Shown here one piece after another: positions 1-300 of a DNA stretch of 655 bases (position 1 is its first letter; every line of letters begins with the position of its first letter). The position numbers and the translations under genes are program-made. The DNA is from Escherichia coli (GTDB lineage Bacteria; Pseudomonadota; Gammaproteobacteria; Enterobacterales; Enterobacteriaceae). Under the pieces are notes generated by a model, which did no database searches, had not been told where the DNA came from, and was given only the letters and a program-made list of their open reading frames with translations. Location of the stretch: the NCBI RefSeq assembly GCF_003334255.1, contig NZ_QOWU01000202.1; one strand, 5' to 3'.

Positions 1-300
1 CGCCAGCGCGATGTTGCTGCGCTCGATGCAAAATACTCGAGGGAATTAGCCGATGCGAGAGCTGAAAATGAAACTCTGCGTGCTGATGTTGCTGCTGGTC
101 GTAAGCGCCTGCGGATCAACGCCACCTGCTCCGGTACCGTGCGTGAAGCCACCGGCACCTCCGGCATGGATAATGCAACCGGCCCCCGACTGGCAGACAC
201 CGCTGAACGGGATTATTTCACCCTCAGAGAGCGGTTGATGATGATGCAGAAGCAGCTGGAAGGGGCACAGGAATATATCCGCACTCAGTGCCTGAAATAA
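1..300 (+). CDS. Rz: Rz-family i-spanin (inner-membrane spanin subunit), C-terminal ~99 codons; 5' end lies upstream of the window
   Basis: Frame 1 is open from position 1 to TAA at 298-300. Translation: RQRDVAALDAKYSRELADARAENETLRADVAAGRKRLRINATCSGTVREATGTSGMDNATGPRLADTAERDYFTLRERLMMMQKQLEGAQEYIRTQCLK*. From memory this closely resembles the periplasmic C-terminal half of phage lambda Rz (e.g. ...DVAAGRRRL..., ...PRLADTAERDYFTLRERL..MQKQLEG...). It contains a fully embedded +1-frame lipoprotein gene, the hallmark of Rz/Rz1 pairs. Two Cys residues (ATCSGT and RTQCLK) sit where lambda Rz has its periplasmic cysteines. Not in the supplied ORF track because the start codon is outside the window. 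Confidence 0.88.
   Translation, partial: RQRDVAALDAKYSRELADARAENETLRADVAAGRKRLRINATCSGTVREATGTSGMDNATGPRLADTAERDYFTLRERLMMMQKQLEGAQEYIRTQCLK
39..43 (+). promoter_or_regulatory. Shine-Dalgarno sequence for Rz1, located inside the Rz coding sequence
   Basis: GAGGG at 39-43, with a 9-nt spacer to the ATG at 53-55. Spacing and sequence are typical of an E. coli-type ribosome-binding site. Confidence 0.55.
53..112 (+). other. Rz1 lipoprotein signal peptide plus lipobox (type II signal peptidase substrate); predicted lipidated Cys at codon 20
   Basis: MRELKMKLCVLMLLLVVSA followed by C. The -3 to +1 residues V-S-A-C fit the lipobox consensus [LVI][ASTVI][GAS]C. The +2 residue is Gly, not Asp, which is consistent with Lol-dependent outer-membrane sorting. 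Confidence 0.7.
53..238 (+). CDS. Rz1: Rz1-family o-spanin (outer-membrane lipoprotein spanin subunit), embedded in the +1 frame of Rz
   Basis: ORF 53-238 (61 aa, TGA at 236-238) lies entirely inside the Rz reading frame, shifted +1. Translation: MRELKMKLCVLMLLLVVSACGSTPPAPVPCVKPPAPPAWIMQPAPDWQTPLNGIISPSESG. Signal peptide with basic n-region (R,K), hydrophobic core and lipobox V-S-A-C (Cys codon 110-112). The mature part is about 29% proline and contains the motifs CVKPP..PPAWIMQP..PDWQTPLNGIISPSE, which I recall as near-identical to lambda Rz1. GAGGG Shine-Dalgarno at 39-43, 9 nt upstream of the ATG. An alternative in-frame ATG at 68 would give a shorter signal peptide; 53 is preferred because of the SD and the basic n-region. 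Confidence 0.88.
   Translation: MRELKMKLCVLMLLLVVSACGSTPPAPVPCVKPPAPPAWIMQPAPDWQTPLNGIISPSESG

Follow-up and report, generated by a model that had tools for sequence, protein, structure and literature searches.

Does the first part of the 655-nucleotide stretch of Escherichia coli DNA analysed here (contig NZ_QOWU01000202.1 of assembly GCF_003334255.1; hereafter the window) encode one protein or two, given that one open reading frame (ORF) lies inside another on the same strand, and to what kind of element do these frames belong? The first-pass annotation of the window had described them as an embedded two-component spanin pair, Rz with Rz1 in the +1 frame, placed at the end of a lambdoid lysis cassette with holin and endolysin genes expected just upstream. 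The analysis presented here arrives, with a probability of about 0.96, at the reading that positions 1-300 form the final two thirds of a lambda Rz/Rz1-family locus that encodes an embedded two-component spanin, and that this locus belongs to a Shiga toxin (Stx) phage-like lambdoid phage or prophage identical to Escherichia phage PhiR12_3. The genome of this phage (PV340552.1, 30013-30667; host ECOR13) shows 100% identity to the window over all 655 bases. The window begins at codon 57 of Rz and includes the start codon of terS at position 602, and spans the junction at which the lysis cassette of a Stx-phage-like lambdoid prophage gives way to the packaging module.

The outer frame (frame 1 of the plus strand) encodes Rz, the i-spanin, and is open from the first base of the window to a TAA codon at 298-300, its translation being RQRDVAALDAKYSRELADARAENETLRADVAAGRKRLRINATCSGTVREATGTSGMDNATGPRLADTAERDYFTLRERLMMMQKQLEGAQEYIRTQCLK. 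The full protein consists of 155 amino acids, with its ATG located 168 nt upstream of the window (positions 3833-4300 of the surrounding locus L001; window -167..300). Full-length Rz was matched to the Pfam family Phage_lysis (PF03245; E 8.5e-50, model positions 1-125 of 126) and to the 'Rz-like spanin' family phrog_13 of the PHROG database (E 1.5e-75), the 99-residue part encoded in the window giving an E-value of 2.4e-49 alone. Comparison with the Rz protein of phage lambda (NC_001416) shows that 107 of 153 residues are identical (70%). The exact protein is named 'lysis protein' at NCBI, with identical records using either 'endopeptidase Rz' or 'lysis protein'. The only strongly hydrophobic stretch of Rz, residues 4-22 (VLCVVIIVLAGGCGALWLA; mean Kyte-Doolittle 2.59), is encoded upstream of the window and is helical in the structural model. 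It is predicted to be a single N-terminal transmembrane segment, which would make Rz a type II (N-in/C-out) inner-membrane protein.

The AlphaFold2 model of Rz consists of a helix at residues 2-87, corresponding to the transmembrane domain (TMD) and coiled-coil 1, a low-confidence coil at residues 88-119 and a second helix at residues 120-154 (coiled-coil 2), with the predicted local distance difference test (pLDDT) score falling below 50 over residues 94-125. This low-confidence segment overlies most of the codons encoding mature Rz1 (Rz ~93-135). It has been described from lambda mutagenesis that the mutationally silent linker of Rz, positions 94-134, contains mature Rz1 (PMC5295617), and the low-confidence segment of the window Rz stands in the same relation to the codons of mature Rz1. 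The most mutation-sensitive stretch of lambda Rz is L64-A73, with V61, A73 and V86 also being sensitive (Cahill et al., PMC5295617). Residues V61, L64, D65, A73 and V86 of the window protein are the same as in lambda and all lambda-sensitive positions are kept. Berry et al. are said to have identified C99 of lambda Rz in 2013 as a site of homotypic intermolecular disulfide formation; Cys99 is present in the window protein, as is a C-terminal cysteine, Cys153 (Table 1). Further disulfide sites in the lambda complex are C152 of Rz and C29 of Rz1 (PMC5295617).

The inner frame encodes Rz1, the o-spanin, and reads from the ATG at position 53 as MRELKMKLCVLMLLLVVSACGSTPPAPVPCVKPPAPPAWIMQPAPDWQTPLNGIISPSESG. 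It is preceded by a Shine-Dalgarno-like sequence located within Rz (Table 1); at the equivalent position lambda and phage 21 possess GAAGGAG, which is annotated as a ribosome binding site in phage 21. The N-terminus of the protein is hydrophobic (MRELKMKLCVLMLLLVVSAC), and by homology to lambda Rz1 (PMC5295617) its putative signal peptide would be cut by signal peptidase II. Cys20 is the predicted lipidated residue that would then begin mature Rz1, and the residue following it is glycine and not aspartate (CGS; checked by rule). According to the Lol sorting rule, a +2 residue other than aspartate fits an outer-membrane lipoprotein, and the glycine of Rz1 implies a predicted sorting to the outer membrane. 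Proline accounts for 12 of the 42 residues of the mature protein (29%). Residues critical for lambda Rz1 are four of P32-P36 together with I39, W46, L50 and I54, P34 tolerating alanine (PMC5295617). The sole change to this penta-proline in the window protein (PPAPP) is alanine at the position of the Ala-tolerant P34, and I40, W47, L51 and I55 are kept as the counterparts of lambda I39, W46, L50 and I54.

Family searches with the embedded ORF gave matches to Pfam Rz1 (PF06085; E 3.7e-21, model positions 1-40 of 41) and to phrog_3198 ('Rz-like spanin'; E 1.7e-31), and 43 of its 61 residues (70%) are identical to Rz1 of lambda (NC_001416). NCBI already lists this exact sequence under the name 'Rz1 family lipoprotein'. 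Rz1 occupies 0.47-0.87 of the length of Rz, near the typical range of embedded spanins, which start at ~0.4-0.5 and end at 0.9-1 of that length (PMC6139136). The account given in the first-pass annotation is thus borne out in its core: two overlapping frames of one strand, open at 1-300 to the TAA and at 53-238 in the +1 frame; an inner lipoprotein with its own Shine-Dalgarno-like site, signal peptide, lipobox and proline-rich mature part; and membership of the lambda Rz/Rz1 family, for which the proposed profile hidden Markov model searches of both translations against spanin families returned significant matches in Pfam and PHROG. Its description of the outer frame as a coiled-coil-like periplasmic domain agrees with the two helices predicted around the low-confidence linker.

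A number of points weigh against this identification. The Rz/Rz1 allele of the window is known here from sequence alone. The model of Rz is only of moderate confidence (mean pLDDT 66, predicted template modelling score 0.31) and was built from an alignment of seven sequences. NCBIfam found no family for any of six proteins, Rz and Rz1 included, a result that is uninformative as a clear terminase was missed too. The remaining points favour a rival explanation in which only Rz is real and the +1 ORF is a by-product whose likeness to Rz1 comes merely from the homology of the DNA to lambda Rz, being neither expressed nor selected in this phage lineage. Rz1 is unannotated in both of the identical records examined, PV340552.1 and RefSeq NZ_CP060083.1. 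Synonymous-codon shuffling of Rz yields a +1 ORF beginning with ATG and of at least 61 codons in 60% of cases, and codon-order shuffling does so in 11%, so the length of the ORF is in itself not significant, and the likeness of its translation to lambda Rz1 follows partly automatically from the homology of the DNA to lambda Rz. Because of this partly automatic likeness, substitutions were counted by Rz codon position in a small sample of seven phages (PhiR12_3, VT2-Sakai, lambda, 21, SH2026Stx1, phiES15 and 4A7); homologues in phages number several hundred (658 records). Outside the overlap, differences from lambda amount to 0.47 per site at Rz third positions, 0.28 at first and 0.18 at second positions. 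Inside the overlap, where the third positions of Rz are the second positions of Rz1, third-position differences from lambda number 11 in 60 (0.18 per site) compared with 44 in 93 (0.47) outside (Fisher p = 2.7e-4). The corresponding values for 4A7 are 18 of 60 (0.30) inside and 55 of 87 (0.63) outside (Fisher p = 1e-4), and the drop inside the overlap was also found with SH2026Stx1 (Fisher p = 0.03). Change at Rz third positions is therefore suppressed only inside the overlap (p ~1e-4 to 3e-4 for the two stronger comparisons). The embedded ORF is kept in all seven phages with its lipobox cysteine and a second cysteine nine or ten residues on, as is the core PP.PPA...MQP.PD..TPLNGII; the lipobox cysteine, the proline-rich core and TPLNGII are invariant even in those phages whose Rz is just 44-56% identical. 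The Shine-Dalgarno site and all of the lambda-essential Rz1 residues are likewise kept. Suppression at third positions combined with retained motifs is the signature of two genes selected on one DNA. Since the length of the ORF is not beyond chance, the case for Rz1 rests on homology and on the codon-position pattern, and a spurious inner frame is considered very improbable.

Two further explanations concern the state of the element and the choice of strand. It is conceivable that the genes are intact yet lie in a defective or cryptic prophage, as a relic without a role in lysis. Many E. coli prophages are defective, most matches to the window are chromosomal (a similar segment occurs in 4534 of 5426 complete E. 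coli genomes, at a median of two places per genome), and in NZ_CP060083.1 a large gene ~2 kb upstream (DUF6645) is marked as frameshifted. Against this stand the deposition of the identical sequence as the complete genome of phage PhiR12_3 and the intactness of the holin, lysozyme, Rz, Rz1 and terminase genes; a relic appears scarcely credible, and this explanation bears on the status of the host element and not on what the sequence encodes. The other explanation places the real gene on the opposite strand, as a 156-amino-acid ORF at 46-516 (-), of which residues 74-156 match phrog_17757 (E 7.1e-44). This match covers just the residues encoded opposite Rz (window 46-297), which is the expected signature of a shadow ORF, and phrog_17757 itself seems to gather such shadow ORFs, predicted by mistake on the strand antisense to Rz. 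The ORF has a TTG start in an intergenic block, its first 73 residues are without a family match, and a 2-nt insertion/deletion (indel) relative to VT2-Sakai (window ~366-367) falls inside it, so that its frame is not conserved. Both plus-strand frames have strong matches to curated families (PF03245 and PF06085). The minus-strand ORF was therefore rejected as a shadow ORF, a coding role for it being close to negligible in probability.

For the embedded spanin pair, from lambda genetics we infer export, lipidation, complex formation, disulfide formation and membrane fusion as follows. Rz would be anchored in the inner membrane by its N-terminal transmembrane helix, followed in the periplasm by coiled-coil 1, a flexible linker and coiled-coil 2. 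Translation of Rz1 would begin in the +1 frame at a separate ribosome binding site within the Rz gene, and the product would be anchored in the outer membrane. Rz and Rz1 would bind through their C-terminal parts to give a complex across the periplasm, and homotypic disulfides (C99 and C153 of Rz, C30 of Rz1) would convert it into a covalent heterotetramer. The S21-type holin is expected to depolarise the membrane and the lysozyme to clear the peptidoglycan mesh, whereupon the Rz/Rz1 complexes, no longer restrained, would collapse and bring about fusion of the outer with the inner membrane as the last step of lysis (PMC5295617, PMC6139136). Knockout of either Rz or Rz1 in lambda results in a spherical-cell lysis defect, both being needed for disruption of the outer membrane (PMC5295617, PMC6139136), and by homology the pair of the window would have the same role. 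Consensus scans for promoters and terminators on both strands of the window found no sites; the absence of a terminator-like site between Rz and terS fits a single late transcript continuing into the packaging genes.

Table 1. Features of the spanin locus and its neighbouring genes, with positions relative to the window and, for features in the flanking DNA, in locus L001.
Feature	Window position	Strand	Position in L001	Description
Rz gene, 3' part	1..300	+		Codons 57-155 and TAA; distal half of coiled-coil 1, flexible linker and coiled-coil 2
Shine-Dalgarno-like GAGGGA	39..44	+		8 nt before the Rz1 ATG, within the Rz coding sequence
Rz1 gene, complete	53..238	+		61 codons and TGA (236-238); wholly inside Rz, +1 frame
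Rz1 putative signal peptide, residues 1-19	53..109	+		MRELKMKLCVLMLLLVVSA ahead of the lipobox Cys
Lipobox V-S-A-C	101..112	+		Cys20 (110-112); Cys invariant in seven-phage Rz1 alignment
Rz Cys99 codon	127..129	+		Invariant in seven-phage Rz alignment
Rz1 Cys30 codon (lambda C29)	140..142	+		Invariant in Rz1 alignment; Rz1 homodimer disulfide site in lambda
Rz1 proline-rich core P33-P34-A35-P36-P37	149..163	+		Equivalent of lambda penta-proline P32-P36 (alignment)
Rz Cys153 codon (lambda C152)	289..291	+		Invariant in seven-phage Rz alignment; C-terminal intermolecular disulfide site in lambda
terS (small terminase subunit), start	602..655	+	4602-5453 (coding sequence)	phrog_370, E 7.4e-118; ends lysis cassette
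Class II holin	-1405..-1199 (longer start: -1414)		2596-2802 (or 2587)	Read from identical records
Lysozyme, 177 amino acids	-1194..-661		2807-3340	phrog_7 endolysin, E 7.5e-62
Small ORF, 48 or 60 amino acids			3533-3679 (or from 3497)	phrog_1115
Small ORF, 43 amino acids			3694-3825	phrog_4906

The gene context of the window was read from the records that are 100% identical to it (PV340552.1 and NZ_CP060083.1). The order in these is class II holin, lysozyme, two small ORFs, Rz, a 301-bp spacer, terS and large terminase. The lysozyme and Rz genes are separated by 492 bp (L001 3341-3832), in which the two small ORFs interrupt the lysis cassette. Of the first-pass expectation that holin and endolysin would be found just upstream, the presence of both genes upstream was confirmed, whereas their immediate proximity to Rz was not. 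The placing of the window at the end of a lambdoid lysis cassette was supported, with terS following at 602. The nearest classified relatives are of the Stx-phage type (Sepvirinae) with an S21-like holin, and not lambda. An identical copy of the window occurs in at least 11 complete E. coli genomes; phage PhiR5_2 is 99.2% identical to it, and VT2-Sakai shows 92.6% DNA identity over its whole length.

Comparison with lambda shows that Rz1 in both phages is fully contained in Rz, out of register by +1, with an identical nucleotide start offset (221) in Rz. Common to both are also the domain order of Rz (TMD, coiled-coil 1, linker, coiled-coil 2), the three periplasmic cysteines, the lipobox cysteine at residue 20, the proline-rich core and the C-terminal motif. 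Differences consist of one extra linker residue in each window protein, PPAPP in place of PPPPP, and the lipobox VSAC in place of VVGC. The surroundings differ further: Rz abuts the endolysin gene in lambda, whereas the 492-bp insert lies between them in the window phage, and lambda carries bor after Rz, which the window phage does not.

Phage 21 (S21, R21, Rz/Rz1) resembles the window phage in its holin, the 71-amino-acid upstream holin being 92% identical to the S21 pinholin/antipinholin with the dual-start region kept, and in its Rz, which is 69% identical; the Rz and Rz1 proteins of the two phages are of one family. The endolysins differ, the lysozyme of the window phage being only 33% identical to the signal-anchor-release (SAR) endolysin R21. 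This lysozyme possesses a hydrophobic N-terminal stretch (LSVAVLALIATGASA), a putative SAR domain, which together with the S21-type class II holin suggests a predicted pinholin/SAR-endolysin pathway. VT2-Sakai (Sp5) and SH2026Stx1 (Sepvirinae) share the order holin, lysozyme, insert, Rz/Rz1 and terS. Rz of VT2-Sakai is 93% identical to that of the window and its Rz1 differs at four of 61 residues. Unlike the window phage with its two small ORFs, both VT2-Sakai and SH2026Stx1 have an ant (anti-repressor) gene between lysozyme and Rz. After Rz, SH2026Stx1 carries bor and many Stx2a phages a Rha-family gene, whereas the window phage and VT2-Sakai carry neither.

Positions 301-309 of the window (GTTTTGCTG), directly after the Rz stop codon, coincide with a variable cargo slot that is empty in the window phage and VT2-Sakai. 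In lambda, phage 21 and SH2026Stx1 it holds bor on the minus strand; in UPEC-245U it holds a ~726-bp cassette with its own hairpin-plus-T-run and a Rha-family (anti-repressor-like) gene. Many matches to Stx2a phages, and the match to Lyz12581Vzw, are likewise split, over 1374 bp, the Stx2a-phage inserts being as large as the UPEC-245U cassette and the Lyz12581Vzw match having a Rha-family gene annotated under it, and 4A7 and phiES15 have other ORFs in the slot. The slot is followed by a ~180-bp block (window ~310-490) that is common to lambda, HK630, 4A7 and Stx-type phages and stays whatever cargo adjoins it, be it nothing, bor, a Rha/ant gene or another ORF. Because it is kept in place whichever cargo sits beside it, the block is possibly a functional non-coding element, either a recombination junction for moron swaps at the Rz stop or a regulatory site before the packaging genes, though this is considered improbable; the alternative is a merely inherited spacer. 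No ORF of the block is conserved, and the phages differ in it by short indels, of 1 nt for HK630 and lambda and of 2 nt for the window. Searching the whole window against Rfam with E-values up to 1 gave no match, and RNA folding compared with shuffled sequences showed no excess structure in the 301-601 spacer (z = -0.03) or in three local hairpins (z = -1.76, -0.31 and -0.10).

Other candidate features of this flank were considered and rejected. HK630 has an annotated minus-strand promoter (TGGACA-15 nt-TACAAT) upstream of bor within the block (HK630 45281-45307, ~ window 325-351), raising the possibility of a remnant bor promoter for an RNA antisense to Rz. In the window the corresponding hexamers read AGGTCT and TACTGC, and no promoter emerged from the consensus scan; an antisense promoter in the flank of the window is unlikely, and the HK630-type promoter seems to travel with bor. 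A minus-strand ORF at 224-520 was rejected as it has no PHROG match and contains the 1-nt indel of HK630 and lambda and the 2-nt indel of the window; its resemblance to gp69 of 4A7 is only 41% identity over 44 amino acids with a 4-residue gap. A plus-strand ORF at 288-392, the counterpart of orf48 of VT2-Sakai, was rejected for want of a family match and for a frame broken relative to that phage.

Two observations were made around the start of terS. An 11-codon mini-ORF (MRQFLTEDVRK) is located at window 565-600, its TGA (598-600) ending one base ahead of the terS ATG at 602, and the start is flanked by an imperfect inverted repeat (566-583 / 616-633; 78% complementary). These may reflect translational coupling or start occlusion, or may be due to chance.

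As to orf48 of VT2-Sakai (NP_050547.1, L003 3288-3548, 86 amino acids), this ORF lies downstream of Rz and is labelled 'Rz-like spanin' in RefSeq and in phrog_6954. It has no lipobox near its N-terminus, and its counterpart in the window is cut to 34 amino acids by the 2-nt indel. The true embedded Rz1 of VT2-Sakai (L003 3053-3238) is unannotated in the RefSeq record, and the spanin label on orf48 is probably a misannotation.

Gene callers commonly miss embedded o-spanin genes (PMC6139136), and PV340552.1 labels Rz with an outdated function name, 'endopeptidase Rz'. The spanin pair of the window is correct but ordinary: it is a textbook embedded pair, its sequence has been deposited many times and the exact allele is already known in public databases, in keeping with the first-pass view that the arrangement is established and not novel. 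It is of little value for discovery, its practical value being annotation repair, namely the addition of the missing Rz1 gene and the replacement of the outdated label of Rz.

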